Below, piece by piece: positions 8,839-33,820 of a stretch of 64,000 bases of DNA; the stretch's first letter is position 1; each line of letters starts with the position of its first letter. The notes below the pieces were generated by a model. That model was not told the DNA's origin. It did not search any database and saw only the letters and a program-made list of their open reading frames with translations. The translations under genes and the position numbers were made by a program. Origin of the DNA: Mayamaea pseudoterrestris (lineage: Eukaryota). The stretch covers positions 558,001 to 622,000 of the forward strand of contig BROI01000005.1 in the NCBI GenBank assembly GCA_027923505.1, written 5' to 3'.

Positions 8839-9087
8839 GATCACACAGTCTTGGTCTTTACAATCAACTCTCTCGGGCGCTGGTGACGACCACTCCCGTC
8901 GTTTCGTTGCACACTACATTGGCAGCGGACATCCCTCGTTCATTTCCTGTCCGAGGCTTCAATCTACACTAGTCCGGCAGACGGAGGGATTGAAGACCGA
9001 GTCGAATTGCAAGCATCGCTCGGATAGAATCGACTTCCTCAATTATTCTCGCGGTATATATTCATCCCGTACCAATCAATCAACAAC

Positions 9088-10893
9088 ATGACCGTCGTCG
9101 AAGATGATCCTCCCGACGGACCCAATGTCACGCAAGATGACGCGGAAGACAACTCGCTCGCCGTCGGATTGAAAAGCATTTACAAGCTGAAGACCGTCAA
9201 CAACGACAAGTTCATGAAGCTTCCAGTCATCGTCGCCATCAAGTCACTCCTCCCGGACGGACGCCTACTCACGGAGCCATTCCTAATGCTGACCATCAAG
9301 GACATCGAGTCGGTACTGAAGGAATCCAAAACGCACATCACGGTTATTCGAACCATTACCCGCCTTCGTCAATGGGCATCGGAAGAGCACGAACTCAAGG
9401 AATGGGCGACGCTCACATTCGCAGCACTCATCAAAGCGACCGAATCGCCCGAAGAGTCTCTATTCCAAAGCGACATGAGTCGGATTCAACGAGTCAGCTC
9501 GACGGACGTTCCAGAGAAGTCCGAGGCCGAGAAGTACAAAGCTCGCGTCCGAGTCGACACCAAAGCATACACAGAGTTCAAAGACGAGTACAAATTCCGT
9601 CAATGGTGGCTCAAGACGTTCGCAACGGCCAAGAACCAAGGCATCGAGCGAGTCTTTGATCCGGATTTCAACCCGACAACGCTTTCGCCCGAAGATCTCG
9701 AGGTATTCAAAGCGCAAGAAGCCACAGCATTCGACATCATCACTTCATACTGCAAAGTCGCCAACTGCATCCCGATCATTCGTCGCCACAAGGACGGGTC
9801 GGCCCACGAGTGCTTCAAGGAAATGCACAAGATGTACTTGACGGGCAAGAACGCCGAACGCGCAGCGCAGCGAGCCGAGTCGAGAGTTCGCGACATGAAA
9901 CTGACGAACAACCACGGCAGCACGTACACTGCGTGGTTCACTCAATGGGAGAATGCCTTGCTCGATTACGAAGATTATACCGGCGAAACAGTCCCCGACG
10001 CGACGCGCAAGAAGTGGTTGTCCGAATCGGTTCGCTGGAACGACGCCTTTCGCCAAGAAATCAGTTCGGCGAGTCGTATCCTCAACGCGCAAGGTCAAGA
10101 TCAAAGCTTCGAAGACTGGTACAAGCAGCTCATCGAGTTCGCTCGCGATACCGACGACGTCAAAGCGGCACGCAAACGCCAAATGAAGATCCACCAATCC
10201 ATCCAACAAGCGAGTACTCCACCGACCGGAGGCACTCCACCGACTAGCGGCAACACTCCAAGCAGCAGCCAAGGCGGAAACGGTCGTGGAAATGGCAGCG
10301 GACGCGGAACCGGTCGCAGTTCTGGACGCGGCGGTGGACGTGGCGGCCGAGGTAACTTCGGACGAGGTGGTGGACGTGGACAGTGCACCAATCCTTCTGC
10401 GGCATCGAACCGTCGAGTCGAGCTGGATGTATGGTTCTCTTGGACGGAGGAGCAACGCGAAGCTCACAAGGCAGAAACTCGCTGAATCCGAGAAGCGGAA
10501 TGTGCGCGCCTGCAGCTGAACGCAAGCCAAGCCAGCACGAACAACACTAATACACCACCAACTCCACAAATTCAGCTTCCACCGGCGAATACGACGGCGA
10601 TGTCAACTATGTCAGCGATTACTCAGCCTACAGTCGGAACTACACCAGCACGTGGAACCGCCATGCGCGCGTTTCAGTCTCAGCAACAAGGCTCGATCGC
10701 TCAAGGAAGCCAGCCATCTACTCCACCAGTGTATCAAGCACGAGTCGGCGACGTTACATACAACATGTATCGTGCCAACGCAACCAACGTCACGCGTCGT
10801 TCTACAAACCATGTCGCTACACATAATGCCACGCAGAGCGCTTATGGGTATACTCGACAAACTCATATGTACCGTGCAATGGACTCCGTCTGA
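9088..10893 (+). CDS. Gag of element C (frameshift near 10480)
   Basis: Long ORF after the 5' LTR with a CoDi gag-like core (FRQWWLKTFATAKNQGIERVFDPDF) and an RGG-rich nucleocapsid-like tract. Confidence 0.8.
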
Positions 10894-13800: not shown

Positions 13801-15189
13801 ACGGCCTACGCACAAGCGGAGCACGATTCCACGAGCGGCTCGCGGACGCGCTACGAGCGGAAGGCTTCAAAGCCTCGTACGCCGATCCAGACGTTTGGAT
13901 TCGCGATGCTGGCCATTGTTACGAATACATCTGCACTTACGTCGACGACCTTATGGCAATCATGATTGACCCGGGCGCATTCTACGACATTCTTCGCAAC
14001 AAGTACAAGTTCAAGCTCAAGGGCGTCGGATGCCCAGAGTACCATCTAGGCGGCGACTTCGGACGCGACCCTGACGGAACACTATTCTGGGGCACCAAGA
14101 CCTACATCACCAAGCTTCTAGCCAACTACGAGCGTACATTCAACGGACCACCACAGACAGCGTAAAGCTCTCCACTCGACTCTCACGACCACCCGAACTC
14201 GACCAGACGTCCCTGTTAGGGCGGACTCAAGATCTACCAATCGTTTGTCGGAGCCCTTCAGTGGGCGATCACCCTTGGCCGTTCGATATCTGCAGTGCCA
14301 CCGCCCCTGCCTGTCACGCGGACAGCCTCGCATTGGACACCTCGACCGAGTCAAGCGTGTATGCGGCTACCTTCGCAAGTTTCCCGAGGCAGCCATCCGC
14401 TTTCGCACCCAGTGGCCGCAGAACGAAATCATCTTCGGCGACTCACCAACCTATGACTGGCAACAAACCGTCTACGACAACCCCAAGGAAGAGGTCCTTT
14501 CACTCTGGCCAAAACCAAAGGGCAAGACAGTTCGCCTTACTACCCTCAAAGATGCCAACCTGATGCATTGCAAAGTCACCGGCAAAGCATGCACTGGAAT
14601 CCTTCACTTCATTCAGCAGACTCCGTTCAAGTGGTTTGCCAAACTTCAAGATACCGTCGAACACGCGACCTTTGGCTCTGAACTCATGAGCGGGCGCGTT
14701 GCAACCGACCATATCCTAGGCATACGCGCGTCACTCATGGCAATGGGTGTTCCCATCGAGTCCTCTTCATGGCTACTCGGTGATAACCAATCAGTCATCA
14801 CGCAGTGTACAGTGCCTACATCCACACTCACCAAGCGCCACAATGCCCTCGCATATCACCGTATCCGATGGTGTGTAGCAGCCGGAATTATCAAGTTCGT
14901 CAAGATTGCCGGCAAGGAAAACGCTTCCGACGCGCTTACCAAGTACCTACCCTACATCGACGCATGGCCCCTACTCAAACCATTACTGTTCTGGCGTGGC
15001 GAAACCTTGGATCCTGGAGAACTCGAATTCTACCTTATGGACCCGTCACTGCCTCAAGGGGAGCCGACTCCAGGGGAGCTCATTGAGCTTACACCTGTCC
15101 TGGCACACCTACAAGGGGAGTGTCACAATGACGATCTAGTCCAGTCGCTTGACGCGAACCTAGACGTCGCCGGGGGCGAACGAGCATAG
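10893..15189 (+). pseudogene. Pol of element C (degraded protease, integrase, RT, RNase H; frameshifts near 14160-14300)
   Basis: VAMDTLFS, LISDGAKEE and SEPENQQQNPAE (integrase); HKARMVAGGH, KALYGLRTSG and TYVDDL (RT); LLGDNQSV and NASDALTK (RNase H). The stop codon lies inside the 3' LTR. Confidence 0.9.
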
Positions 15190-15521
15190 TACTCGAACCT
15201 CCGTTGCGGTACCAGAAAAGACATCTACTCACAACTACGTCATTGAAATATTGCATGTGTGCCAGCCGCAGGCACGATTAAACAAGATTAGTATTCACTA
15301 TCGTGAATGGTCTTGAAAGAGCCATCTGATCAATCGCTCTTTCTCGACCGATCGTAAATCAACTCACTTTCTAGAGAACTGCTTAATCAACTAGCGTTTT
15401 GTAGGATAAGACCCCTGTAGGATAAACCAAGGTAAAGGACTGATCACCCCGCTCACTTGGAAACCGACTACAGAGGGTGAGGAATCGTTGCAGCCGTACG
15501 AACTGGAACTGCATCGTGTCA
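15121..15521 (+). repeat. 3' LTR of element C
   Basis: Direct repeat of 8438-8838, preceded by the PPT. Confidence 0.97.
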
Positions 15522-15563: not shown

Positions 15564-17804
15564 AACTCTTCCAGCTTCTCCTACAAGGAGTCAAATGGAA
15601 ATGATCAAGGAACCGGTTACCAACATTGTCGTCGGAAGCGTCAAACTTCGCTCATGCATGAAGACCCACCTCAAGTATTCTGGGCAGTCAGTCACCAACT
15701 CCATGGCAAATGGAGGCTGCAATGGTGCTTCCAGTGGTTTGCAGGCTAGCACTCCCATTGATGACATGCAAGCGAAAAGCCACATCCACCAGGTCAACAC
15801 CAAAGAAAGTGCCAAGGAGTCCGAGGAACTTGATTCCTACCAATTTGATTCCTCTCAAGCGCCCATTGACAATGGCATTCCTTATCCAGCTCTGGGTCCT
15901 TTGGTTGAACCGTCGCAAGCTACCAATATCAAGCCCAAGACGGTAACATTCGGAGGGCAAGATGTGCGATGATTTGTACAAGTTGCTGGTGAATTTATTG
16001 CTTTCAAACACTTGGAAAAGTACCAGGAAAAGTACCGGTATTTTGTTGAGAAGGGCATGCATAAGAATGCCTTGTCACAAAACCTTGTAGCTTACAGCGG
16101 AGGCGTCCGGTACGTACAATACATCAACGAAAACAGCCATTTGTATGTTATGGCATGCCAAAAGGACAAGAAACCTTTTGCAGAGAAGATTTACAACAAT
16201 TTGGTGAACTTTGGTTTTGTGTTCATCAAGCAAATCGATTCTGATTATGAATTCCTTGTTAACACTGATGGTATTATTGTGGTTATGGCGCATCTACGCC
16301 AGTACGAGCATGTGCAGATTGCGGAGGACAATAGTAACAGTAAGCAAGATTAAACTATGAGTGGAAGTTGGAGGTTGGGTGGGTACATGATTGTTTTGAT
16401 TTGCAGTGGGTCTACCAAACCATTCTTTGCCGCAAACAGAGTAAAGTATTACACGAGAATAGTGAGCACCTGGAATCACATAGCAATAGTTTATTTGTGT
16501 CTTTATATGAAGTACAGTAGCTGCTTGAATTGGTGAAGAGCTGCAACTCATCGAGGACGAGAAGCTGCTGCCGTAGTACATAATCTGACCATGTCAACGT
16601 TGGTAATGGCAAGACAGGAGAACAATGTGGTGCGCCTACCACAGAACGAGCATAATATTATTATGTAATACATATTCCATCATGTACACTTCCAAGCTCA
16701 CTTGCTATAATCATGCAGAATGGGAAATTGCATCCACTCAAGCTTGTGGTTACGATGCAAGCAGCAATACGTACTATGATATTCATCTACTGTTTGATCT
16801 ACTCGTTAAGGAATGTAAGGGAATAAGAACAATCAATGCCATCGACTACAGATAGACCAAACCAACCTGCTGCACTGCACATCATGGTTGTGCGCTAATG
16901 AGCTGATTGCGGTGAGGTTTGCAGCAGCCTATGATCGTCCAATCATCATCATTCCGGGCTGGCAGGGTATAGCACTTGGCACACAGATCCTTGTCTCCCC
17001 TTGCTGCAATTGGCCAATTCTGTTTGATGCATTTGGGCACCTGCAAATTACGAACAAAGGCGAAGGTGGTAGTGCTATTGTGGGGTTGGCACGGTATAAA
17101 CTGCCATGTCTTAGAAGAAATTTTGCATTTGCGGCAAGTCCTCTCGCAATCATTCTTGTCTTTTACAACTGGAGACTCAAGTTCAATCAACATCAGATTC
17201 TGCTCCTGCTCTCCCTGAGGGTGCGGCTGGGCTTGCTGCATGCCTGGCGCGCTTAATTTATGGGCACCATGCTGATTGCCTGATCTAGCTGCTGGCCTGG
17301 CCACTTGAAAAGTCTGCCCAGAGCAATGAGCAGTCCTGTCCATCGCTCCAGTTGCATTGGGAGCAGGCGCGGGTCCATTCAAGCCATTGACGTTTCTCCA
17401 GGCGCGCCATTGGTTGATGTACTTGAGACGTTTTGCTGTTTCTTTGCCAGGCAAACCATCGTCATTGACAGAATTGTCGTTTTCTGAGCATTCATCCCAG
17501 TTGATGGTAGAATCACTAATGTGGCCACTCGAATCATCCCAGTTGTTGGTGGAATCACCATCCTTGTCCTCCGAAGTGTTGTCATCATCGTCACTATCGT
17601 TATTGAAAACGGCGGCAGGTTTGTGAACCAACAACTGACCATCCGGCATGAACAACTGAGCATTTTTCCCAGCGAGAAAGGCAACATCAGTAGCAATTCC
17701 AGCTTCTGTGTCACGATGTAATGGTACAGCGTGGTGTTTGTACTCTAAGAGCCATACTAGTGACTGAAACAGTACTTATATACATGCAGTGGCAGTGTAT
17801 GGGC

Positions 17805-17851
17805 AACGTGAATGGTTCGCCGGTGCTCTGGTTCGATTCCGGGGTGCGTTA
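17805..17851 (+). ncRNA. tRNA-like RNA without anticodon arm in TRIM-1 5' LTR (putative self-encoded RT primer)
   Basis: AACGT pairs with GCGTT. T-arm GCTCTGG-TTCGATT-CCGGGGT. Exactly 12 nt between T-loop and discriminator A17851, TTTT at 17854-17857, TATA-like TTATATA about 25 nt upstream. Confidence 0.75.
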
Positions 17852-17892
17852 GCTTTTGCCTTTCTGCATGCGAGTACTGCTACGTCGTGTTA

Positions 17893-17906
17893 TGGTAACG
17901 TCACCC
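17893..17906 (+). other. Primer-binding site of TRIM-1
   Basis: TGGTAACGTCACCC directly abuts the 5' LTR; TGG is complementary to CCA. Confidence 0.85.
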
Positions 17907-18203
17907 GTCCAATGTCGGACCTGGTGTGATTGTGGTTCGAGTCTCGAAAAAGCAAAAATCGAGACCGCGTTGACTGGCAGCTGAGGTGTGTCCCTGCAAT
18001 GTCGCAGGGAACGTGTCATCGTTTGGGAGTAATGACTCCGGCGATAAGTGTCACACCGAAGCACGTAAACCCAGGGCGCGAGAGCATGACTCATAGAGTA
18101 AGGGGGATGTCACGATGTAATGGTACAGCGTGGTGTTTGTACTCTAAGAGCCATACTAGTGACTGAAACAGTACTTATATACATGCAGTGGCAGTGTATG
18201 GGC

Positions 18204-18250
18204 AACGTGAATGGTTCGCCGGTGCTCTGGTTCGATTCCGGGGTGCGTTA
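18204..18250 (+). ncRNA. Second copy of the tRNA-like RNA (TRIM-1 3' LTR)
   Basis: Identical to 17805-17851. Confidence 0.75.
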
Positions 18251-19809
18251 GCTTTTGCCCTTTGCATGCGAGTACTGCTACGTCGTGTTATTCTGCGAGC
18301 TGCCCTACAACATTGTTCAATAGTCGACGCTGGTTGTCCAAATTCTTGTCGCCTGGACTAGGAGCCTCGATGACTCCCCTATCCCCCAGTAGGTCACGCT
18401 GGCTAGCCAGCTGGAAAAGTGGGAGCATGTCAAAACCTGCTTTGTAGAATGTCAGCATAGCTTGAAGAATGCCTTCGATCTCAGCAAAATACTTCTTGCG
18501 CTCATCATCTTCCTCAGCAGCAATGGCTATCCATCACCACAACTCTCGCTTATACGGCGGCGTCATTCCAAGAAGCAGCCATTGGTACACAAAGAATAGC
18601 TGTCATCTTCTTCGACAGCTGTAGTGCGACGAGACTCGCAATCGCGGCACGACTGTTTCCATTGGTCATCATGTCCCAAAACATTCAAGACGTCTTCATC
18701 AATGTCCAAATACTCCTCGTAAGAGCTGTTGGAGTTGTCACCACCTTTTACTGGTACATGGACCGTACTTGTGGGGAATCTGTTCTCGAATGTGTTGGTG
18801 GTAGCTCCAGCCGCCAAAGTGGTTCCAGCAGCAGCTTCAATATTTTGAGCTCCAGCAGCAACATTGTCTGCAGCTGCTTTCTCAGCGTGAAGATGCCGCA
18901 ATTTTTTGATCCCATGTTCCTCCGCGTGGGGTGGAACTTCCGTCTGACCGCCAGCGTAATCCTCCTCCTCCTCTTCTTCGTCTTTGTCTTCTTCTTCTTC
19001 GTCTTCTTCTTCTTCGTTGTCATCATCTTCTTCTTCCTCCACAGTGGCAGGAAGGAAAGCAGTAGGAGCATTGCTGTTAGCGCGAGCTGCAGCTGGCACC
19101 GTTGTGCTGGCGCGAGCTTCTGCAGATGCTGTCGCGTCGGCGCGAGCTGCAGCTGGCACTAGAGAACTGTCGGGAGGCATAGGAGACTCATCAGGGATGG
19201 CATCCATGGTAGTAGTATTATTAATCAAGTCTTTGTTACGGTGTCGGGTCGTCATGGTGAAGTAGTAACAGTAACTAGGCGCATGTGGTGTGCGGTGACT
19301 CATGGCGAAGTGTGGAAGCGACAAGTTGGGTGGACGCCGCCCGGGTACCGGTACAAGTACCGAGCGTCAGTCATTGCAATTTGACGATCGAATATTATCA
19401 ATATAGGATACCTTTTGAGAATCACCCAACGTCAAGAATTCAATCGTGAAGGATGGCTTTCGTGACTCAATGGTTTTCGATCACAGTGCGCCTTTTGAGT
19501 CGACCAGCATGTTGTATTATTTTCGTCCGTGACGAGGAAAATTCAACACGTCGCTTTAGCCGTTGCCTTTACCATTTAGAGTGACCATCTACGTGGTTCC
19601 CCTGCATTAATTTTGGGTGTCACAACCCTTAAATAGTGTATGGTAGCATTCACAATGATGCAATGACAAGATGAAGAGCGACATGAGGAGAAATACAAGC
19701 CAGCGCAGTGCATGTTGCCACAAATATTGCCCACTATTAAGCTTATACGTTAATGATCACAATTCCTTTCACTTGCGAGCATGCGCCACCCACTACGGCT
19801 CCTTTCCTC

Positions 19810-21349
19810 TCAACCAACAACGCTGCTGCAGGAAGCATCCTTCATGATTTCAAAGCACCCGTTACACAATGCATGCAAGCATGCACTCACAGTGTCAGCA
19901 GCATCTTTGCAGACATGAACTGGTGCTCCTTGCTTCATCGTCATAAAAAGCAATGAAGTACATTTTGCGCATGACCTTGCTGCTCCGGGTGTTTTAGCAA
20001 GCCAACCAGGATTAAAGTGTGTAATATCAGTCTCCAATTTATAACAATCAGGGTCTTTATGACCACAGTCATTCTGTTCAGGGCTAGTAGGCCCTTCAAT
20101 GAACATGTCTTGGGACTTGTGCTTGGGAGCAGATGTGGGTGCTGTGGCAGCTTGGTGTTCTAGTTGGACTGGTGTGACCGCACCAGCAGCTACTTGATTT
20201 GGTGATGGTGTTGTCAAAGCTTCCAAATGGTTGTGGCCTCAAAAGTTTAGCAAGATGAAGCACATGTTAGTACTTGGAAATCTCGTAAATGCATTGTCAA
20301 TGCACACATAACGTTACATACCTGTCTGGTCCCTCTCCAATCTTGACGTAGTATTCACTGCTGGATCTAGCAGGTGGGGGGAATGGTGAGAGCTGCAGAG
20401 CCATAATTTTTTTGGAAGGTAATGGTGCCAAAAACTTACGCATGGCTTGCAGCGCTGACTCACTAATAAAGCCATGCTCCACAAAACCTTGGAAAAATCC
20501 ATAGGAGATTTCGCCTCTCTGCAGCCCCTCAAGAACATATTCCTCCAAACGAGCAGACACCGCAGCAGTAATTCCTGGCCTTACAGCGCTTGGTTCTACT
20601 GGTCCATTAGCGACTTTCCTTTTCTTTGACTCAAGCTTTGCTGCTGCCTTTTCTTCTGTCAAAGTTACAAGGACACCTTTAACTGAGCGACTGCCATCAT
20701 TAAAAGATATTTTTGTGTAGCTTTGACCCACGACAGTGCGCGTATTGCTGCCAATAAAACATGCGTGATGTTTTGAAGAAATCACCTGCAATTCCTTCAC
20801 CAACTCAGCTCGCTTAGCGCTAACTTTCATTTTAATACTTTCTCCGGGATGATTGCGAAACTTGGCTGCCAGTCGCTCATTGAGTTTCCCTTCGGTTGGC
20901 GACATGTACTCAGCATGGAAATGGTCCAGAATCTTCCGCTCAACCTTCAAGTCCCATGTCTTCGCATTCTCCCCTTCAAAAGGTGAATGCTGAATGAACA
21001 GCATGGCTTTTTGTGTTTCCTCGCAGTACATTGGAGACTTGTTGGCATAAATAGTTTTGATGTCAATCCAATCGACTGGAAAGTGGCCGTTGCGCAGCAT
21101 TGATGGGTGCCTCCTAGCCTCTGTCACCACGACTCGCACAAACTCATTGCGAGTAATTTCGTAAATTGTCTTGACCATGTCTTCTAGCTCCTTTTTATAT
21201 GCTTGAATAATTTCATCAGTAGGATGAATGTTGTTGCGCGGTGGAGCACCTTGTTGGAACTCAAAGACCAGCCTGGCATGTTCTAAGGTCACCTTGCCTT
21301 TTGGAAAGAAGGGTCCAGGTATCTTCCAAATTGGTTGTTCTGACATCAT
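19810..21349 (-). CDS. Hypothetical protein, probably two exons, with a C-terminal Cys/His zinc-finger-like motif (possibly degenerate)
   Basis: 350-aa ORF 20297-21349 with a GTATGT donor near 20321. ORF 19810-20226 contains CAKC...HVC...CLHALCNGC. Confidence 0.45.
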
Positions 21350-21715
21350 AGGCTTCCCTCTTAGATTGTAGTAAATGGGTTTTTTATGTGGTTTTTACTG
21401 GAAGAGACTGCGCGTACATGCGATGGATGGCACGAGCAATGCGACGATCGATCGATTCGATCGATCGATTGACGCCTCGTAAAGTAACGCGTGTGGTGTT
21501 GTCGCAACATCCGAGTCAGCACGCTAGTGAAAAGGTGACCGGCGCGCAATGAACCATCATCTGTTGTCGCAGTGGCTGCATGCCATCAATGTCGTCAAAC
21601 ATGTCGTGATCTACGGTATCCTACCACCATGATGCATGATACCGTACTCGCAGCTTGTAAACGTCCCGTGTACCTAGCGGTATGCAGAAGATTGAGGCTG
21701 CTACGGAAAATTAAA

Positions 21716-22965
21716 CTATAAATATGCAATCGCTCCATTGAACCGAAAATCCACGATCTTCCAATTAAGCTCCCCACGCTCGGCATTGTACTCGCGCTGA
21801 AAGGCAGCCACATATGAATTGGCACGAACGTCGTCCTCGGCGCCTTCGATTATTTCTCCATCTTTTTTGCGTCGGGTACAGTTAATTTGCTGGCACATGA
21901 AATGCAGAATGATAATTGGCGACCCCTTTTCGACTTCATCGGGCTGTGTAAATGGGTGGGTGGGTGAGTGTTAGCAAAATCATCGTCTTGATAAACACAG
22001 ACATCCAATTCTAAGCCGATTACCTCGCAAGCCAAAATTTCAGAGTTCATAATACCCAGTACATGCGTATCAACTTCCACTCCCTCCTTTTCCCGCGCCT
22101 TGATTTCTGCAGCTATACGCTTAAAGACCCCCTCACCGAGCCAAGGTTTGAGCTGATTGATGCGACCTTCGAGCAACCACTTCATCACGTTTGGTAGCGT
22201 ATGCTCCACGACATCTTCTCGCCAGTCTTCCAACGTAAATTCAGGATCAAGCTTTCGCAGTTCCTTGACTGCCAAACTCTCTGGAGTTTCCGCCGTTAGT
22301 GTATCATAGACACTGCTCACGCGATACACCCATGGATTTTGACTCGTTTCCCACGCCTCCTTGGCGTCTTCCTTAATATCATCGAGTCGCTCCTTGGCTT
22401 TCCGAGCACCGGATGTTTCATAGACTCTTTCCGTTCGTTGTAAAACTTGCGCAATGATTGGCGCGTCCGTCAAACGCTTTTGCATGCGCTCCCAAGCAGT
22501 CAAGTGTTCCGACGGGTCAATCACCATCAGTTCGCCAACTGGACCAGTGTACGGAGCATCACCTTCCGCGGTAGCGACTGGATGAATCTTCTTGTTAATG
22601 TCCTTTCGTTTGCCACTGTTCAATAGGTCTGTCCAAGCGAGACTGACTTCGGCCTTGAAAGCGTCGAAATATTGAGCAAGTTGGGGAAGTAAATTGTCAA
22701 ACTGAATGCTGGAATTGCTAGATGATGCACCAGAACTCGCGGCTGACTCCTCTTCCTTTTTGTCTTGCTGTATGCGGTTCACAGTATCCTTGAGTGACTT
22801 TTTCGTGGCAGGTTCGTCGGAGCTGGTGTTGCTACCGGTAGTCGAATGCCATCGAAAGGATGAAGCTGCAGCTAAATGAGACTCTTGATAAGCTCGCCGC
22901 CATGTACCACTCCTTTGCACAGTTCGCACATGACTAATTCCTTGCAAAGTTATTGCTCGCATCAT
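21716..22965 (-). CDS. TIM44: Mitochondrial import inner membrane translocase subunit Tim44
   Basis: Mitochondrial presequence; WETSQNPWVYR, LRKLDPEFTLEDW, LHFMCQQINC. Intron 21944-22023 (GT-AG). Confidence 0.88.
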
Positions 22966-23242
22966 ATTGTCGTACACAACGAATAAACAATGAATGAAGA
23001 GTTGCTTGCAAGCCTTGCTTCGGTCGTTCTTGGTGCGCGTTTCGATGGATGGCGCGCGTCCGTTTGTCTCGCAAAAGCACTTACGGTTCAGGATGACGGT
23101 ACGATATGCGTTCTCGATCCGAACCCTTCGCCATTGTGAGAAGGCAACGTTGCAAGCAATCTCGTTGCGAAGCCCGGCCATGTATCACTTGTATCATATC
23201 ATAAAAGCAAAAACGACCATCGCTTCGATAAAATCAAGCACC

Positions 23243-23707
23243 ATGCTTTCTCATATGAGCATTGCCGTCAAACACAGCCAGCGAACGCTACTGCCGTACA
23301 CTAGGACGCTGCCCAAGGCTGCTTTCTATTCGCCGACGCCCAAAGAGTTCGTCCCCGAGGAGGGCTACTACCATGGCCACTTGATTACGGAAAACCTTGA
23401 GTACTTGAACGACGTGATTGACAAGAGCGTTGAGCTTCAAGAAACTGTGCGTACAGTGAAGGACTCGCATGCGGCTGCAGTGGAATCAAACAAGACGCTC
23501 AAAGCGGAAGATGTGAGGCGCCTCTTGGCCCTGGCGCGCAAACGTAACGATGAAATTGCAACGCAGATCGGAATTCTGCAAAACATTTTGGACGACAACA
23601 GAACCTTTGCAGTAGATGCTCCCGATGGTATACCGGACTGGTATGTCATTGAAGAGTTGGAAAAGGTGCAAGAGATTCTCAAGAGTAATGACGGTACGGT
23701 CAAGTAA
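23243..23707 (+). CDS. Hypothetical protein, possibly mitochondrial (FAVDAPDG motif)
   Basis: Clean ORF divergent from TIM44 with a presequence-like N-terminus. Confidence 0.6.
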   Translation: MLSHMSIAVKHSQRTLLPYTRTLPKAAFYSPTPKEFVPEEGYYHGHLITENLEYLNDVIDKSVELQETVRTVKDSHAAAVESNKTLKAEDVRRLLALARKRNDEIATQIGILQNILDDNRTFAVDAPDGIPDWYVIEELEKVQEILKSNDGTVK

Positions 23708-24168
23708 GCCTGCTGATAGTTCTGCTACATTAAACGAAACGATTAATATTGACTGTATCTATTCATATGGACGCTCCATCTACTTTTAGTTTACGTCGTC
23801 ATAATGATACAGTTCGCAGATATGTTTTTAGATTCGGCAAATTTCTTGTCTGATAGCCGAAAATGCGCACCTGGTCCACACCCGAAAGCATTTAAGATAG
23901 AGTCTATGGGACCCATGCTTTCTTCCGAGCGTCCTTCCTTCCGTATTTCTAGCAATTTTTGAAGCTGCTTTTGCATCTAGGTAACGGTCTTCTATTGGCG
24001 CGTGATTGACTCCAAACAGAGGCAAGTACGTCGTAGCTAAACTCAACGGCGGGTCTTGTTTCGGTCACGCTTGCGACCGGCTGGCTCGCAGGGCGGTCAC
24101 ACTTTTTGTTCACTGATCCAAAATTTGCTGCCGAATGAATGCCGAGTGACGACGAAGATCTCGACCCG

Positions 24169-24402
24169 TAAAAGAAACCTGCTAGCTGAAGTGCAAGTTA
24201 GGTGTCAATCAAGCTCGCCAGGGAGTAGACGCTGGAGAGTCCTTTAGTTGTAGCAATAAGCTCACAATTTTAGATTTGAGTTGCTTTCAAACAAGTTGTC
24301 GTCGAGCGTAAGTGCGGGACTTTGATTCCAAGAGTCATAGGCTGCCGCCAGGGGACTAAACTAAAGTCCTCGGGTAGCTCGTCACCAGATAGACTTCTTT
24401 GA
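24169..24402 (+). repeat. 5' LTR of element D
   Basis: Direct repeat of 31727-31960. Confidence 0.97.
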
Positions 24403-24414
24403 GGTTATGAGCCC
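24403..24414 (+). other. PBS of element D, complementary to the anticodon arm of initiator tRNA-Met
   Basis: GGTTATGAGCCC is the reverse complement of GGGCTCATAACC, the half-tRNAiMet priming mode known from copia and Ty5. Confidence 0.88.
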
Positions 24415-24909
24415 AAACAGCTATCGCGAACCTTGACAAAACCTGATTGTCAAGCTTAACAAGAGAAGATGCATTCCATACGAAGAAGCAACCGGGCGTA
24501 ACAAGAACTTTCGCGAATTTTTGTCACCATCCGATCGTCTGGATTAAGCCCCTCGCCAAGGGTAATATGGCCCGTGTCAAGCGTCACTGATCCTGTACAG
24601 TCTAACAGACAGTACCAAGCAAGCAGTCGCGTCAACACTTTGATTACTGAGCGAGTCCCTTAAGTGGAAACTTTCGCCAAAAGTGTCAATGCCTCCCAAT
24701 TATTGCAAGTTGGTCATTTAAGAAGGCTGCCTAAAATAGGCTTAAATAAGAAATTTCGAGTATCCAACGGAAGAAAATTCCTGGCGTGCTCGCCCACGGT
24801 TTGTCGAGTTGCCACCATGAGGCAAACGAAACCAAAACAAGCAAGCAAACAGCAAGCGTTTTAACCAAGTTAACAAGCAGCAATCAACCACCCTACCGTT
24901 ACCATCAAG

Positions 24910-25629
24910 ATGTCCAAGTCCACCGAAGCGTTGGAGAGGGAGCTCAAGGAGCTAGCGAAGCTTGTAGCGCAGCTACAGAAGGAGAAGGAGGACGGCGCCT
25001 CAACGGCAATGACTTACCAGGAGCTCAAGCAGTTGGCCCGCAGCAAGGCGCAAGAGTTGGCGAAGGACTGGAATCTTACTAGTCGCACTGGAGCTGCATT
25101 CCAAGCCAGTACACCTGGAGAGACGCAGTTTCGCCTCGGCAATAACCAAGGCCGAGGAGGCGGCAATGGAAACCGGAGCAATGCTAATAACCATCCTGCA
25201 CCGGCAGAAGGCGGATCCGAGCGGCAGACCTTTGCCGGAACAGAGAAGCTTTACTGTCGACGATGCCGACGCTGGTTGCCTGTGTCCAGTAACAAGGCAC
25301 ATGTAACGGCCGATCACCGCAGCAATCCAAACAACGGTGGCGGCAATAGCAGCAACAATGGCAATGGCTCTGGTGGATCCAGTCGCGGCCGCTCCCAGTC
25401 GCGCGAGCGGAATAACAGCGGCAATGCCAATGGTGGCGGGGGCGGTAACAACAACGGAAACAGTAACGGCGGCAGAGGCAATGGAGGCAGAAGGCGCCGC
25501 AACAGGAACAATGGTGGGCGCGGTGGCCAGGGCGGCAATAATCAAAGCGCCCAGCAACCGACCCAGTCGACAACCACGTCGAGCGGTTACCTCTCTAGCT
25601 TCTCCATGAATCTGTTCCCCGAAATGTGA
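24910..25629 (+). CDS. Short Gag-like protein of element D
   Basis: CRRC...H...H zinc-knuckle-like motif followed by a G/N/R-rich tail; first ORF after the PBS. Confidence 0.75.
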   Translation: MSKSTEALERELKELAKLVAQLQKEKEDGASTAMTYQELKQLARSKAQELAKDWNLTSRTGAAFQASTPGETQFRLGNNQGRGGGNGNRSNANNHPAPAEGGSERQTFAGTEKLYCRRCRRWLPVSSNKAHVTADHRSNPNNGGGNSSNNGNGSGGSSRGRSQSRERNNSGNANGGGGGNNNGNSNGGRGNGGRRRRNRNNGGRGGQGGNNQSAQQPTQSTTTSSGYLSSFSMNLFPEM

Positions 25630-26676
25630 AGGTGTTGGACGCTACTCATGTTCTTTATTATGGTATTGAATCTGAGTGCGTCGGGTTTAAGATTTGCAAG
25701 TCTCACAAGTGTTCCAGCTCCTTACCAGGCAGCAGGCCAAGCTTTCGAGGCAGTTCTTCTTGGAGCCGGTCGATTTATCCTTGCTTTGGCAGCTCTTCTG
25801 AGCCAGTCCCCATGGTTGCAGTGTTTCTATCAAGTTGTTGCAAGTTTCAACCGCAATGGCTTGCTCCTGCTCCAGTGGATTGCCCATTGGACGAGTTGGA
25901 TGGCGTTTTACTTCATACGTCTCCTCGATTCAGCGCAAGTGGAAACCGCGTTCCTCGGTGTCCTTTCCAAGCTCCAAGAACCTTGTTACTATGTTCTCCA
26001 AGCACTGTGGTTCGTTCTCAAAATGAATCCGGTGTCCCAAATTCTAGGCAAGCTCCTCGAGTGGTTAGCTAAACCGTTCAGGATGCGAGCCGATGTGTCC
26101 CAGTGGACATCTCCACGCGTCTTTCCAAAGCGCTGGATGGTCCTCGATGCCGTCATGCTCTCTAATCATGCGGCCATGGAAGTGTCACAAAGATTGGTGC
26201 GCTACACACGATTCGTGCACCTATTCTGTCGATATCAAGTCCGTCTGTCCACATGCGTCTCTTCCTGAGTGCAAGGCGCAAGAAATGGAAGAAGGCGCAA
26301 GTTGCTATTCGAGAGGAAGCCAAGCTAGTCGGCGAGCAGCTTTAACGCAGCCAAGCAGATGCATGCTCGAGTTGCGCCAAAAGCCATGGAATTTGACGGC
26401 TAACATGCTTTGATCACCAAGATTTACCAAGTCTTTTGGAAGCGCAAGCGCAATGGTTAGCAATGCTCCCACCAGTGCCAAGCAAAGTCGGCGGACAACA
26501 GAAGCAAGATGAGGAAGCTGCACTAGACCCTCTCCAAGTCTGTTTCTTTGTGCCTGCCGAGCAAGAGTCTCTACCCCAGGAAGCTTTCTTTGATGCTGTT
26601 GGCGATATAACAGACATTGAAGACGTCTTCTTCGAGGTTGAGCAAATTCCCAGTCCTGTACCCAGTGATGATCCGT

Positions 26677-26820
26677 CCCCGCTCGCGTCCCTGACCGAGT
26701 CCAAGACCAAGATCAAGACCAAGGCCCTGCTCGTGTCCCTGACCGAGTCCAAGACCAAGTCCAAGTCCAAGGCCCCGCTCGTGTCCCTGACCGAGTGCAA
26801 GACCAAGTCCCAGTCCAAGT
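26677..26820 (+). repeat. 3 x 48-bp coding tandem repeat in element D
   Basis: Units start at 26677, 26725 and 26773 and encode variants of PLASLTESKTKIKTKA. Confidence 0.92.
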
Positions 26821-28875
26821 CCTATTCCCAATGCCAGGCTCTTATGCCGGCGCCAAGCAAGCTTCTCGAGGAGGTTCTCCACGGCCATGAAGGCGCATCA
26901 ACGATAGCTCAAGCTCTTCTCTCCACGGTTGATGAGTCCTTTAACTTGTCGCCGCCCTATCCAGGGAGCCTGTCGCCGCCTCTTCAATTGCGGTCATCAA
27001 GCTTGGGCAAGGAAGACTATAGCAATGCATTCAATGCTCACGTCTTTGACCCAGACTTTGTCATGGCGTTGCATTCGAGGCCAAGTGTTCAGGGCGGTCA
27101 GGAGGAGCTAATCTCCGTCGTCCTAGATACTGGTTGCTCCGTTGCTCTGACGTTTTGTGAGGATGATTTTGTTGAGTTGTCAAGGACCAAAGGCTTTATC
27201 AATACCGCTAATGGCAAGTCTGCTATCACGGGGCACGGCAAAGTGCGTTGGATGTTTATCACGGAGCAAGGCGAGAATGTGGAGGTCATTGTACCAGCGC
27301 ATTTGTGTCCTGCCTCCAACCAACGCCTGCTGTCGCCTCAAGGCTATGCTCTATACCACGGTTTAAGCCAAGATGAGATCCAATATGGCGGTTCACATTC
27401 ATTCTTCTTCATGAACCTGAAGGACCAAGATGGCAAGTTTCACAAGTTCCGTTGTCCCATTCATCCGCGCTCGAACCTTCCACTAGCGGTTGCCCGCTCA
27501 AGCGAGTCCTGCACGTGTGCCGAAGCCAATTGCACAAGTTGCTTCAGCCATGGCTACATTACTGTGGCTGAGGAGACAAACCAGAATCTAACTGGCAGTC
27601 AACGTGAGCTCCTACTGTGGCATCAGCGTCTCGCGCACCGAGCAATGAACTATGTTCAAGACTTGTTTATTCCGAAGGTCGAGCCCAGCTCCTTGCCTCC
27701 TGCTGAGCCACCGCCGGGTCCGTGTATCAAACCGACTCACAGCGGTGCTCGCACATGTCCTGCTCCTAAGTGTGCTGCCTGCCTACTAGCCAAGCAGCGG
27801 CGCAGGCGAGAGCTCAAGGAGTGCGCAATCTTGTTGATGGCGCTCTGATGGTGGATGATTTGCAGCCAGGTGACCCGTCTCTGTTGATCATCAGTCGTCA
27901 GTCTCGGTAGACGCCCGACGTCTCGAGGGCGGGAATCCACAGGAATGAAATTTTGCGGCGGTACCATTTACGTGACCATTGTTCCAGAGCTATCTTCTGT
28001 ATCCACCAAGTCAGTTTTGCGACGGCGATACCATCAAGGGCAAGCGGCTAGTTGAAAAATACTTTGACGAAGCCCTGCCTGGACTAAAGATCAAAGCCTT
28101 CCATGGCGACAATGGCATTTTCAACTCAGCCGAGTTTGAGGCCGACTTGTTGCGCCAAGGGCAGACGATTAAGTTCAGCGGTGTCGGTGCACATCATCAA
28201 AACGGTGTTGCAGAACGTTCCATTCAGATTGTGGTAGAGATGGCGAGAACGATGATGCAGCATGCTTCAATGCACTGGCCGTCGGAATTCGAGGAAAGTT
28301 TGTGGCCCTTCGCCATGGACTATGCCTGCTGGTTGTGGAACAACATGCCGTCCCGAGGAGGTTTAACACCTTTGGAAGTGATGTCCGGTGTCTCCGGTGG
28401 AGGTGCAAACCTTAGCCGTGCAAGAGTTTGGGGTTGTCCAACCTTCGTGTTAGATCCAAAGCTACAAGACAAAAAGAAGATCCCGAAATGGCGCCCACGC
28501 TCCAGGCGAGGCCAGTTTCTGGGCATGTCTACAGCTCATTCATCAACCGTTGGTCTCATCCGGAATCTGGTTACTCAGCACGTGTCGCCACAATTCCATG
28601 TGGTGTATGATGAGCTGTTCCAGACGGTGGCAAACCCTGGCTTTGACGACGCAGACCCACTATGGATCCGCCTGTTTCGGTCAAACCGAGAGCTTTACCT
28701 CGACATGGAGGAGCTCAAGGCAGACTTGTATCCAGCGCAGTTAAGAGAGGACTACTGGACTGAGGAAGATAGCAGGTTGCACACGAAAAACAGCAACCAG
28801 AGCGATACCTTTACTTGTCATAGTGCATGGTGCCTTGTATGCAGCATATAGTACACTAGCAGACGGAAAAGTAGC

Positions 28876-28931
28876 AGCGTGTTTAGAGGTGATATAGCCG
28901 GTTATCCTTGGTTCGATTCCGAGGTGCGCTA
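28876..28931 (+). ncRNA. tRNA-like RNA without anticodon arm in TRIM-2 5' LTR (putative self-encoded RT primer)
   Basis: AGCGT pairs with GCGCT. T-arm CCTTGG-TTCGATT-CCGAGG. 12 nt to discriminator A28931, TTTT at 28933-28936, upstream ATATAG TATA-like element. Confidence 0.75.
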
Positions 28932-28975
28932 CTTTTAACGGCATAGTGATACTACTTTCTGTTGCATACCTGCTA

Positions 28976-28988
28976 TGGTAGCGTCCCT
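28976..28988 (+). other. Primer-binding site of TRIM-2
   Basis: TGGTAGCGTCCCT abuts the 5' LTR. Confidence 0.85.
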
Positions 28989-29345
28989 ATCGAGAGATCT
29001 GGACTGAGGCTGCTGGTTCGAGTTGCGATCGAATCAAGCGAAGAAAAAGCAAAAATTCACTGGTTGCACGGGTTTGTCACGAACGAACGATGGGGAGTCG
29101 CGGACCCTGGGGAGTGCACAAAGATGCGCCGAGCCCGAAACGCCGCAGGAAAAACTGAAAAGTGACATTCCCCCGCGAGACGAAAATGCCAGCTGAAACG
29201 GAAGACGAGTTAGCACTATGACGCGCAAAGCTAGGGGAGTAGCAGGTTGCACACGAAAAACAGCAACCAGAGCGATACCTTTACTTGTCATAGTGCATGG
29301 TGCCTTGTATGCAGCATATAGTACACTAGCAGACGGAAAAGTAGC

Positions 29346-29401
29346 AGCGTGTTTAGAGGTGATATAGCCGGTTATCCTTGGTTCGATTCCGAGGTGCGCT
29401 A
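29346..29401 (+). ncRNA. Second copy of the tRNA-like RNA (TRIM-2 3' LTR)
   Basis: Identical to 28876-28931. Confidence 0.75.
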
Positions 29402-31726
29402 CTTTTAACGGCATAGTGATACTACTTTCTGTTGCATACCTGCTAAAGAAGCTGAGTTTCACCGCAGAGACAAGAGCACAAGTGCAGAAGCTACCGACGA
29501 GTTGTATACCGACGTTGACGTTGTGCCGAGCCAAGAGCCAGCCCCAGAGGGCGGCCAGCCAACTGAAGCACCAACTGATGCGCCAGCTCACGGTTTAGCT
29601 AATGTACAAGCTCCTATTGCCGTTGACTTCGTCCCTGACGAGGAAGTTGACGAAGAACCCGAGCAAGAGGACGAGTCTGCAGAGGCTCCTTCCTTGCAAC
29701 CAAGTGCCGATCCACAGTCTGACGAAGAGACTGTCCTAGCCAACAACCAGTCACTGCACCGCCGTTCCAAGAGGAAGACCAAAGGTCAGCGCAAACAATT
29801 GCGGTTTGACGAAGAGTTCCATCTTGCAGAGCGCGCCGTCTTGACGGAAGAAGGTTGGGTGATCCGAGCCAAGAACTCCAAAAGGGTTGGTGCGATTGTG
29901 TATCCCATAGAGAAGGACGATATTATAGGCCAACGCATGGATTGGACTGCCTCAGCAAGTTCTGGTTCATTAGCGGCGCTCTTCACTGAATATGAGCGAC
30001 TGTACACCGATCCTTACTCAATGGAGATTGACGATTCACATCCGTTCTCGTATGCCGCCAAGGTCGCCGACGCAGATTCTCCTACTTACCGGGACATTTG
30101 CCGAGCAGACGAGGAAAGCCAAGCCAAGTGGATGACTGCTATGCAGGGCGAAATGGACGCGCTCTTTAGCAAAGGAACGTTTGAGTGGATTCACAAATCA
30201 AAAGTTCCCAAGGGCAAGCAAGTCATTCCAACAACCTGGGTCTTCAAAGTGAAGCGAGCCGTCGACATGAGTATTCGCAAGTTCAAAGCGAGATTCTGTG
30301 TCAGAGGCGACCGCCAAGATCTTAAAGATGAAGATGGCGCTGAGCCAAGCGTTTACGCTCCCGTTGTCCAATGGTCCACCATAAGACTGATGTTTAACCT
30401 GATGATTGCTCACAAGCTCAAGTCGACCCAGATTGATTTCCGCAATGCTTTCGTTCAGTCTGATTTGCCAGAGCCGATTTACATCCAAGCTCCAGCGGGT
30501 TTGAATGACCCTAGCAAGAAGGATCACGTTCTTAAGGTCTTGAAGAGTTTGTATGGCGACAGGCGCGCACCCCAGTTATGGTTCAAGCATTTGTGCAAAG
30601 GATTGGAGATGCAAGGATTCAAGCCGTCTCAGCACGATCCGTGTCTCTTTATCCGCCACGATTGCGTCTTCTTTGTTCATGTTGATGACGGTTGCTTTGT
30701 CTCCAAGTCGCAGAAAGTGATTGACAAGTGCATCGAACAACTGATCAAGGATGGCTATGATTTGGATCCCGAGCGCGGCGATTTAGCTGGTTTTCTAGGC
30801 ATCAAGATTGAGGAGGAGAAGGACAGCCAAGGCAAAAGCAATGGCAACCTCGTCCTTACTCAAAACTCACTCATTGAGCGCATCCTTAAAGTGCTCAAGC
30901 TTTCTGATTCTAAAAAGACCAAGCTCATCCCCGCAGCCGAAGCCTTAAAGGCATGCAAGGAGTGTCCGGCCCACGACGAAGATTGGAATTACAGATCCGT
31001 CGAAGGCATGATGCTCTATCTAGCGCAGAATACAAGACCAGACATTGCAATGGCGGTTCACCAAGCGGCACGATTTGCTAACGATCCACGCGACGTGCAT
31101 TCCAAGGCTCTCTTCTACATTGGTCAGTACCTACTAGCTACACGAACCAAGGGAATGATCCTGCGCCCGAACCGTAATTCAATGCATTTGGACATGTATT
31201 GTGACGCCGACTTTTCCGGTCTATTCAAAGTGGAAGACCGTGACGACCCAAGAAGCGCCCGCTCTCGAACTGGTTACATTATCACGTTAGGAGGAGCGCC
31301 AGTGCTCTGGGCAAGCAAGCTCCAGACGGAGATTGCGACTTCTACCTGCGAGGCCGAGTACATTGCGTTATCTACAGGAATGCGATCACTGCTACCAGCC
31401 CGCTGGATTTTACAAGAAGTTACTAGCATGTTGCAGTTGCCGTCAAAGCAGCGCTCTGTCATTTCAACCGTTTGGGAAGACAATGATGCAGCTTTGATTC
31501 TGGCCACAACAGACCCACCCAAGATCTCGTCACGAACCAAGCATTTCAATGTGAAATATCACTGGTTTAGGAGTCACCTTAAGAAGGGACAGATTGAGTG
31601 CAAGCGAGTCGATACCAAGGAGCAGTGGGCAGACATTATGACGAAGCCACTGGACCGTATCCGACTGGAAGCAATCCGTAAGAAGATCATGGGATGGTAA
31701 GACCTTGTTGCTCACTTGAGGAGGAG

Positions 31727-31960
31727 TAAAAGAAACCTGCTAGCTGAAGTGCAAGTTAGGTGTCAATCAAGCTCGCCAGGGAGTAGACGCTGGAGAGTCC
31801 TTTAGTTGTAGCAATAAGCTCACAATTTTAGATTTGAGTTGCTTTCAAACAAGTTGTCGTCGAGCGTAAGTGCGGGACTTTGATTCCAAGAGTCATAGGC
31901 TGCCGCCAGGGGACTAAACTAAAGTCCTCGGGTAGCTCGTCACCAGATAGACTTCTTTGA
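31727..31960 (+). repeat. 3' LTR of element D
   Basis: Direct repeat of 24169-24402. Confidence 0.97.
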
Positions 31961-32084
31961 ACCCGTTGCTCTCTTGCATCACTTTTTCCGAGCTCGGGCG
32001 GCTATCAAGCACCTCCATTCCTTGTTACAATCCAGTTTTCGAGTTAACGAATCGGTTCCCTCTTCACCTCTATCCATTTGCACG

Positions 32085-33820
32085 ATGAAGATTTCTACAA
32101 TCCTTCTCCTTGCCACCCTCCTCGGCAGCTCGGCCGCTCAGCGCGAGTACTTGAACCCAGCAACTGAAGCTTGGACGACGGTCGGTGGAGAAGTCAAGCC
32201 TGGCAATGGCTTGTTTGCGGACCCATCCGGAGATACCTTGGTGGGAAGCTTCTTCGACGGAAGTCTCATCATGTTCAACGCCGAGACAGGAGAAAAGCTC
32301 GCCACATACACGCCATCCGTTTCTAGTGGAGCCACCATCCGTGGCTTTGGAGGTGTGACGTTTTCCTACGCGGGAGCGACGCCCTATGTGACCTATGCGA
32401 TTACGGTGAATCCGTTTGACGATGCGAAAACGTAAGTAGCTATGCACTTGGTTGCGAATGACGAATGAATGGAAGAACACGACTCATTTCTCGCACTTCA
32501 TTTCTTTCGACAGGCGCGTGATTGCCGTTTCGCCATCGGGTGATCAGATTCTTGAAACTGTTGGCGTACCAGGAGTCCAGTCAGGCACTCCATTGACTAC
32601 CTACGATGGTCGCTACATTTTGATGAACTCCAACTTGGACGACCAGGGCTACTTTTCCGTATTTGATACCAACGGCGACACATCGAATCCGATTGAACCG
32701 GTCTATCAGTTTACTGGTAATTCGACGGCACCTTTTGCACCTCTTGGAGGCTTTTTGCAGCCAGCCGAAGGATACTATGATGGTGGAGAAGCCAATCGCA
32801 ACGATATTTTTGCCTGGGGTGTCTCCGTTCCAGAGAATGCCACTGCTGCTGGCATGGGTCAGTTGTACGCCTTTCAAATGCCCATGGACGGGAGTGCCAT
32901 GAAAGCATTTGCTCTAGGTGGCGAGCAAGCCTTCCAAATGTCAACTGCTCCAGTCTTTGGCAACAAGGGACGCAACTTGTACCTGGCCACGACACGCGCC
33001 GAAGAACGCTGCTGGGTAGGAGAAGCTGGCTTTGATCGCAGTCGATTCAATCGCGGACGCACTGAAACGATCGGTTTGACGCGTGGAAGTCCGCAGTATA
33101 TTTCGGCCGCTGCGCCGCCAAGTCTTGGAGGAGATCCAGAGTTTCCGACAGTCTATGGACCAGGTACGTGTTGAGACGGACATGTATACTGTTTTACGAT
33201 TTGATAGTAATTGACTGATAACTTACCTCGTTTACGCTACAGGTGCCGCCGCTGAAGTCTGGGCTGCTACTTACAATTTCTCCATGTACGTGGCCGTCCC
33301 AACCACTGCCGTCGTTACGAGTAAGGTGCAGGTGTCGCCCGACAATGTCATGGTTTATTATGGCACACAGGATGGGTTCCTCGTCCAGGCCGACGCTGCC
33401 TCATTGACGCCGGTCTGGTCCAAAACATTTGGTGTATCTTTGGAGGGAGAGATTGCCCTTAACAAACAGGGCACCATGGTTTACGCGTGCGACTCGTCGG
33501 GAGTGGTCAAGGCTTACACTGTATCGACGCCGGATTCCACTACCACTGCTCCCACGGCCACTGCCGCACCAACCGGACCAACCATTGCGCCAACGATCAC
33601 GCCGCAACCCACCATTACTCCTCGTCCGACAACATTTGCTCCCACCAAAGCACCAGCGGCGGCGGCGACGGATTCGCCTACCAAGACGCCGACGAGGGAT
33701 GATGCACCAACAGGATCGCAACCTTCTGGTGGTTCCGTGGAACCTTTGGAGAACTCGTCCGCGACGCGTGCGATGGGTGTGGTTGTTCCCTTGGCACTTC
33801 TCCTTGGTCTCCTGTTGTAA
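32085..33820 (+). CDS. Secreted/cell-surface protein, beta-propeller (PQQ-like) with a Pro/Thr stalk and probable GPI or TM anchor
   Basis: Signal peptide MKISTILLLATLLGSSAA. Introns 32432-32513 and 33164-33242. APT/PT repeats and a hydrophobic C-terminus. Confidence 0.75.

Follow-up and report, generated by a model that had tools for sequence, protein, structure and literature searches.

Whether a non-coding retrotransposon can supply the primer for its own reverse transcription is the question raised by TRIM-2, a 676 bp terminal-repeat retrotransposon in miniature (TRIM) at 28770–29445 of a 64,000 nt stretch of the genome of the diatom Mayamaea pseudoterrestris (GenBank assembly GCA_027923505.1, contig BROI01000005.1, positions 558,001–622,000; this whole stretch is hereafter the window, and all coordinates use its numbering). 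Each long terminal repeat (LTR) of TRIM-2 carries a tRNA-like segment, the mimic, whose 3′ end plus CCA is complementary to the element's own primer binding site (PBS). The original prediction took the sequence as a hint that this segment derives from a captured host primer tRNA, perhaps the initiator, which had lost its anticodon arm, and envisaged self-priming by it. Our analysis leaves little doubt that TRIM-2, with its sister family TRIM-1, is a Helenus-type TRIM, here in a diatom. For the LTR module we see an even chance that it is an RNA polymerase III (Pol III) unit descended from a primer-type tRNA matching the PBS, while priming itself falls to a host tRNA.

TRIM-2 has the structure by which TRIMs are defined: short direct LTRs, a PBS, a polypurine tract (PPT), no coding capacity, a target-site duplication (TSD) and an empty site. 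Its 206 bp LTRs (TAGCAGG...CCTGCTA, repeat family D1/D3; 5′ LTR 28770–28975, 3′ LTR 29240–29445) are identical at 206/206 positions, and the element, which like TRIM-1 and the surrounding Copia element lies on the + strand, is flanked by the same four letters, AAGA, on the left (28766–28769) and the right (29446–29449). The PBS, TGGTAGCGTCCCT with the core TGGTAGCGTCC, lies directly 3′ of the 5′ LTR at 28976–28988, and the PPT, AGGGGAG (29233–29239), adjoins the 3′ LTR, where the TRIM-1 counterpart is AAGGGGGA. No + strand open reading frame (ORF) of at least 150 amino acids was found inside TRIM-2; a minus-strand ORF (29034–29591) overlaps the element, an overlap which we judged to be due to chance.

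Empty sites and depth were assessed by comparing the contigs of four public runs with positions 17500–32100 of the window. The TRIM-2 empty-site joint (28765 to 29446) skips 680 nt (28766–29445) with four ambiguous letters and was present in all four runs. Joints for TRIM-1 (587 nt skipped, five ambiguous letters) and for the Copia element into which TRIM-2 is inserted (the whole element, 7797 nt) were each present in two of the four, hence all three insertions are polymorphic and young. The summed contig depth of bins in TRIM-2 was ~60–130× that of neighbouring single-copy bins in two runs (X2 and X3); this is not a copy number, and in view of the depth tool's warning against such use it serves here as no more than an indication that there are many copies.

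TRIM-1 (17709–18290, 582 bp, TSD TTCTG) has LTRs at 17709–17892 and 18108–18290, which differ by one mismatch and one indel, and its PBS, TGGTAACGTCACCC, occupies 17893–17906. The LTRs of the two families are barely alignable; the best-conserved block in their alignment runs from the T stem to a TTTT run.

In TRIM-2 the tRNA-like module (28876–28931) is made up of the 5′ strand of the acceptor stem, a small hairpin, a T arm, the 3′ strand of the acceptor stem and base 73. A second copy lies in the 3′ LTR (tRNA-like unit 29346–29401, B box 29380–29390, TTTT 29403–29406), and the TRIM-1 module has its tRNA-like unit at 17794–17851, its B box at 17830–17840 and its TTTT at 17854–17857. The T-arm hairpin, CCTTGG-TTCGATT-CCGAGG (28906–28924), encloses an exact 11 nt B box, GGTTCGATTCC (28910–28920), and all four LTRs of the two families have it within a 6 bp T-arm hairpin; box B (GGTTC) is also conserved in Helenus. 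The exact B box has four matches in the window, all of them inside these LTRs; with up to one mismatch there are six, against 1.03 expected, a number reached by none of 100 shuffles.

In standard tRNA numbering, set by the position of the T loop, the TRIM-2 module has GTGCGCT as bases 66–72 and A28931 as base 73. Its 5′ strand, AGCGTGT (28876–28882), pairs with bases 66–72 at 7/7 positions (four Watson-Crick (WC) and three G-U pairs), placing A28876 opposite T28930 (A1:U72), and the same arrangement of A1:U72 and A73 is seen in TRIM-1. Of the two 5′ ends originally proposed, 28876 is thus the one that pairs throughout, and the other, 28873 (AGCAGCG), pairs at only 3/7 positions. The claim that the anticodon arm is missing was borne out, as the acceptor stem and T stem are separated by 24 nt in TRIM-2 (24–26 nt over both families) compared with 41 in a full tRNA, which leaves no room for a D arm and an anticodon arm together.

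Around this core lie the putative signals of a small transcription unit. A TTTT run (28933–28936), a candidate Pol III terminator, is the sole + strand run of at least four T in each LTR and begins 1 nt (TRIM-2) or 2 nt (TRIM-1) past base 73, and the internal region of TRIM-2 has no run of at least four T. A TATA-like motif found by a regular-expression scan (28847–28851) lies 22–29 nt 5′ of the candidate 5′ ends, where it may act as an upstream promoter element. An A-box-like motif, TAGCAGCGTGT (28872–28882), begins 38 nt before the B box and is the best match in the LTR to what we take to be the A-box consensus. Judged from its sequence, the module resembles a shortened tRNA gene that brings along a terminator. 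A low-depth LTR variant in runs X1–X3 carries T>A changes at 28933 and 28935 that abolish the TTTT, together with changes at 28882, 28920, 28924 and 28939; the terminator is therefore not retained in every copy.

The complementarity between module and PBS was scored by adding CCA to every end position in the LTR and pairing the result with the PBS in an anchored register (192 positions in TRIM-2, 170 in TRIM-1). The tail ...AGGTGCGCTA, which ends at 28931, paired with the TRIM-2 PBS exactly as had been claimed, through eight WC pairs, one G-U pair, one mismatch and three more WC pairs. Base 73 plus CCA was the top PBS partner in both families, ranking 1/192 in TRIM-2 and 1/170 in TRIM-1, where the mimic and its own PBS form eight WC pairs, a G-U pair, two mismatches and four WC pairs, or 13 WC pairs when one PBS base is bulged. 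Duplex energies were -19.8 kcal/mol for TRIM-2 and -21.9 kcal/mol for TRIM-1. Only 0.3% and 0.1% of 1000 shuffled tails, respectively, paired as strongly, so the match exceeds chance.

Within mimic bases 61–73 the two families differ only at positions 64 and 71, and both differences are mirrored in the PBS. Mimic 71 and PBS 6 are C:G in TRIM-2 and T:A in TRIM-1, and mimic 64 and PBS 13 are A:T in TRIM-2 and G:C in TRIM-1. A second abundant TRIM-2 subfamily, seen as loose contig ends in all four runs, shares the PBS up to 28986 (TGGTAGCGTCC) and then diverges; since it loses the pairing at positions 12–13, the covariation of 64 with 13 may be chance, and only that of 71 with 6 is robust.

A sceptical reading of these figures is that the module is a Pol III promoter taken from an unrelated tRNA or short interspersed nuclear element (SINE), as proposed for Helenus, and that it resembles the PBS by coincidence. 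Such a reading can point to the contiguous pairing, which covers only five encoded bases, to runner-up LTR positions that reach seven WC pairs and one G-U of ten, to the kinship of TRIM-1 and TRIM-2 by descent, which means that they are not independent trials, and to the extra pair at position 13, which the second subfamily did not retain. We nevertheless consider it improbable, as it would have to put the best match at the one position specified a priori in both families, yield duplexes that so few shuffled tails equal, place U72 and A73, which are rare outside initiator tRNAs, in both mimic and PBS, and change mimic 71 and PBS 6 together between the families.

The account that we favour, at even chances as stated above, separates the origin of the module from the act of priming. 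The LTR unit, with its TATA-like motif, degenerate A box, exact B box, acceptor 3′ strand and TTTT, would supply a promoter for Pol III and set the point at which the transcript ends. Its tRNA-like stretch would correspond approximately to the R region, and genomic RNA would have to be made by read-through of the first TTTT. The PBS begins with TGGTA and would therefore pair with an RNA that has U72 and A73 and ends in CCA, features by which the 3′ end of an initiator-type tRNA is recognised. The most likely source of the module would be this primer-type tRNA itself or its pre-tRNA, with a template switch to an RNA inside the particle as one conceivable route, and such descent would explain why the module's 3′ end is a sense copy of the PBS complement. 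Priming would then be carried out not by LTR RNA but by a host tRNA ending in ...GACG(C/U)UACCA (...GGACGCTA or ...TGACGTTA), the 3′ end of which would be complementary to the core TGGTAGCGTCC or TGGTAACGTCA.

What speaks for a separate primer is a mismatch shared by all three versions of the PBS that were seen. In the retroviral mechanism, the PBS of the plus strand is partly re-copied from the primer in each cycle. Positions 9–10 of the PBS are T and C in TRIM-1, TRIM-2 and the second TRIM-2 subfamily, where the mimic (G68, U67) would demand C and A. Given re-copying, a conserved core of 10–11 nt that disagrees with the mimic most likely reports the 3′ end of another primer.

Several observations weigh against this account. 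The A box is poor: the two best matches to the consensus that we assume, TAGCAGCGTGT and TGGCAGTGTAT, have 2/11 and 3/11 mismatches, and of the Helenus box-A pattern (TRGCY ... YGG) the TRGC is seen, followed by A instead of Y. The lack of internal TTTT runs is not significant, as 38–76% of dinucleotide shuffles likewise have none. ARAGORN at default settings detected zero tRNAs in the window, and three Rfam searches returned no tRNA match at E ≤ 10. The T-stem pair 50:64 is T-A in TRIM-2 and C-G in TRIM-1, a double compensatory change that suggests a constraint at the RNA level, beyond a role as DNA promoter. PBS position 6 (G in TRIM-2, A in TRIM-1) mirrors mimic 71 (C and T), a joint change that a single shared host primer is not expected to give, and duplexes with mimic and PBS swapped between families are weaker (-15.6 and -19.0 kcal/mol) than the cognate ones. 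A host tRNA ending in ...GACG(C/U)UACCA is itself a prediction.

Folding adds little to the case for a tRNA. At -14.7 kcal/mol (z -0.62), the minimum free energy (MFE) fold of the 56-mer at 28876–28931 shows an acceptor stem, a hairpin and a T arm, and tRNA-like folds were not better than those of shuffled sequences (z -0.89; further folds, z -0.1 to -1.75). Calls made by ARAGORN under relaxed or intron settings were rejected as artefacts, among them a 'tRNA-Val' spliced from LTR1 to LTR2. Without an anticodon arm or a call by any tRNA detector, the module is not a genuine tRNA gene. Given the ARAGORN, Rfam and folding results, the label 'tRNA-derived' rests on its 3′ half, and it is there, in the B box, T arm and acceptor 3′ strand, that the tRNA derivation originally claimed holds.

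The alternative with the largest consequences is that the element primes itself in trans, through a Pol III transcript of ~60 nt from the LTRs (solo LTRs included) that the host's tRNA-processing enzymes would trim after base 73 and tail with CCA, as happens to tRNA-like minihelices, and that would then anneal to the PBS of the TRIM genomic RNA and prime minus-strand synthesis. This would account for base 73 plus CCA being the best PBS partner in both families with duplexes far above shuffles, for the covariation of mimic 71 with PBS 6 and of the T-stem pair 50:64, for the 13 WC pairs available to TRIM-1 with one bulge, and for the greater stability of cognate over swapped duplexes. A terminator directly 3′ of the unit would yield a discrete small RNA, and the acceptor 3′ strand is as conserved as the B box, though a promoter has no need of it. 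If true, this would at most be the first retroelement with its own tRNA-like primer; self-priming would free a non-autonomous element from its helper's choice of host tRNA and would explain the joint change of mimic and PBS between families.

We nonetheless regard self-priming as unlikely. What stands of this part of the original prediction is a PBS match above chance that recurs in TRIM-1 with one compensatory change. The mismatch at PBS 9–10, which re-copying should erase, contradicts it in all three PBS versions, and the second TRIM-2 subfamily has no pairing past position 11. The acceptor stem is weak (four WC and three G-U pairs in TRIM-2, three and four in TRIM-1), and structures made to contain it lie 4.2 kcal/mol (TRIM-2) and 8.4 kcal/mol (TRIM-1) above the MFE fold. 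A 9 bp stem between AAAAGTAGC (28867–28875) and GCTACTTTT (28928–28936), which had been proposed to close the unit, does form in MFE folds of TRIM-2, and has no counterpart in TRIM-1; where present, this stronger leader-trailer stem would bury the would-be 3′ end of the primer. In addition, Kojima reported no such complementarity for any Helenus family and rejected the idea for these elements (PMC10886601).

The same complementarity could instead act in cis. The acceptor 3′ strand, lying in the R region of the genomic RNA, would pair with the PBS 45–50 nt 3′ of it and so mask or present the PBS, in the manner of the U5-leader/U5-IR stems of retroviruses, and the covariation would reflect the upkeep of this stem. 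The MFE fold of the TRIM-2 leader (28873–29036) does pair 28977–28988 with 28922–28933, the covariation of 71 with PBS 6 fits, and neither CCA addition nor processing is required. The stem was, however, not formed in the MFE fold of the TRIM-1 leader, and MFE folds of ~160 nt are unreliable. Moreover, base 73 stands opposite PBS base 4 and leaves TGG free for CCA, which descent from a tRNA predicts and a stem does not need. We therefore find a cis-acting stem a doubtful explanation, and descent from a primer-type tRNA with priming by a host tRNA remains the reading that we prefer.

Which tRNA the module came from is a separate matter. The original prediction likened AGCAGCGTGTTTAGAGG to the 5′ end and D-arm of protist initiator tRNAs, a putative resemblance. 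The ends A1:U72 and A73 look like those of initiator tRNAs, but the T loop, TTCGATT, is one expected of elongators. Compared with the reverse complement of the PBS of the host Copia element, the mimic scored no better than chance (51% and 16% of shuffles scored as well); this is the only host-derived initiator fragment, and it spans the arm that the mimic lacks. One match, not a tRNA, came from a metagenome scan in which an initiator-like anticodon arm, derived from this reverse complement, had to precede a GACGYTA 3′ end. The tRNA 3′-end strings had zero occurrences in one supplementary file of a small-RNA paper on a different diatom, P. tricornutum, and a full-text literature search with the PBS strings returned no relevant paper.

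The 22-mer of the mimic had zero matches in viral contigs. Its one match in genome contigs, in an actinobacterial metagenome-assembled genome (MAG), is at chance level and not a tRNA. At this match (contig L002, 576–622), 25 nt are identical to a TRIM-type T arm and acceptor 3′ strand and are followed by CCA, with no tRNA call; this stretch is probably a tRNA 3′ fragment, such as the remnant of an integration site. A third exact copy of TGGTAACGTC in the window, at 35403, lies inside a sulfite-oxidase gene and was dismissed as a chance match.

Both families share a further pair of motifs in the internal region, GGTTCGAGT ... AAAAAGCAAAAAT, located at 29015–29056 in TRIM-2 and at 17937–17959 in TRIM-1. 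The first is a second B-box-like motif, 40–70 nt 3′ of the PBS, and is followed by the second; they may serve in packaging or as a further site for TFIIIC, or may reflect resemblance to a helper element.

The Copia element that carries TRIM-2 (24169–31960) has 234 bp LTRs, an RVT_2 domain (E 1.8e-33) and the TSD ACCCG, and TRIM-2 is inserted between its integrase and reverse transcriptase regions. Its PBS, GGTTATGAGCCC... (24403–24421), is complementary to an initiator tRNA's anticodon loop (anticodon CAT), and a 12-mer of this PBS recurs in excerpts of the literature on initiator tRNA. A second Copia-type element with RVT_2 (8438–15521) has 401 bp LTRs with four differences, the ends TGTCAC...GTGTCA and the TSD GACGT. 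The sequence after its 5′ LTR, GATCACACAGTC..., lacks TGG; together with the LTR end it makes up an inverted repeat (TGTGT..ACACA). Because the 5′ ends of its LTR (TGTCACAATG) and of the TRIM-1 LTR (TGTCACGATG) are similar, this family is a candidate helper.

Among the genes of the window, the sulfite oxidase is matched best, among named homologues, by those of Phaeodactylum (66%), Amphora, Epithemia and Seminavis, at 62–66% identity. Two ferredoxin-dependent bilin reductases are convergent neighbours (50491–51597 on the + strand and 51827–52939 on the - strand; Pfam Fe_bilin_red, E 2.8e-55 and 1.2e-36).

Set against known retroelements, TRIM-2 recalls several priming systems without belonging to them. 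The Tf1 transcript folds back in cis through its first 11 nt, which RNase H cuts off. TRIM-2 shares with Tf1 an RNA of its own that is complementary to the PBS, which would make a host tRNA dispensable; its PBS complement, however, is 28922–28931, ~56 nt from the likely 5′ end, and would need 3′ processing and CCA addition before it could pair with the TGG. Lying at the 3′ end of the unit and not at the 5′ end of the transcript, it is not of the Tf1 type. Elements of the Ty1/Ty3 type are primed by the 3′ end of the initiator tRNA, and those of the Ty5/copia type by its anticodon arm. The start of the TRIM-2 PBS, TGGTA, fits the former through a U72-A73-CCA end, and the PBS of the host Copia, GGTTATGAGCCC, complementary to the initiator anticodon loop, fits the latter and its half-tRNA priming. 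The Ty1/Ty3- and Ty5/copia-type elements differ from TRIM-2 in being autonomous and having LTRs without a tRNA-like module.

As a class of mobile element, TRIMs with Pol III modules (Cassandra, Helenus and Ajax) have been recognised only recently, and LTRs of this kind can inflate or confuse tRNA and SINE predictions in genome annotation. Excerpts of two papers describe Cassandra LTRs as carrying Pol III promoters and terminators (PMC7215508) and as mirroring changes in the host 5S gene (PMC10853983). Cassandra is, to this extent, comparable with TRIM-2, being non-autonomous and widespread with a small-RNA gene, promoter and terminator in each LTR; it differs in that its module is 5S and, in these sources, its hosts are plants only, whereas the TRIM-2 module is tRNA-like. 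Our literature search returned no report tying the 5S part of Cassandra to its PBS.

The closest relatives are the Helenus elements. As presented in the main text of Kojima 2024 (PMC10886601), these TRIMs have LTRs that contain tRNA-derived sequence, besides a PBS, a PPT and TSDs of 4 or 5 bp, and the conservation of boxes A and B in them was interpreted as a promoter for Pol III. The group TRIMp3 comprises Helenus, Cassandra and Ajax. The hosts given there are rust and some agaric fungi, six animal phyla and Selaginella. This kind of element is thus already known, and in that text it is listed for neither diatoms nor other protists. Our literature search found no description of Helenus-type elements in diatoms, nor does the main text of Maumus 2009 on diatom retrotransposons mention tRNA, TRIMs or primer binding; the supplements of Kojima 2024 may hold partial PBS matches.

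In the features described there, TRIM-1 and TRIM-2 agree with Helenus: they are short and non-coding, with two LTRs, a PBS, a PPT, a 4 or 5 bp TSD and a conserved B box, the tRNA-like part of the LTR is unlikely to yield a working tRNA, and several families occur in one genome. They differ in their host, as Table 1 of PMC10886601 has only fungi, animals and Selaginella, and in a module without an anticodon arm, with a weak A box and with TTTT directly after it. They also differ in the complementarity of module and PBS, which the Helenus main text reports as absent from every family, leading to the conclusion there that the LTR sequence is not a primer. In M. pseudoterrestris this complementarity is present in the exact tRNA register in two families, both of them young, mobile and multi-copy, which are distinguished by a compensatory change. 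At the least, these elements extend the range of the Helenus type to a diatom and suggest that its module was captured from a primer-type tRNA.

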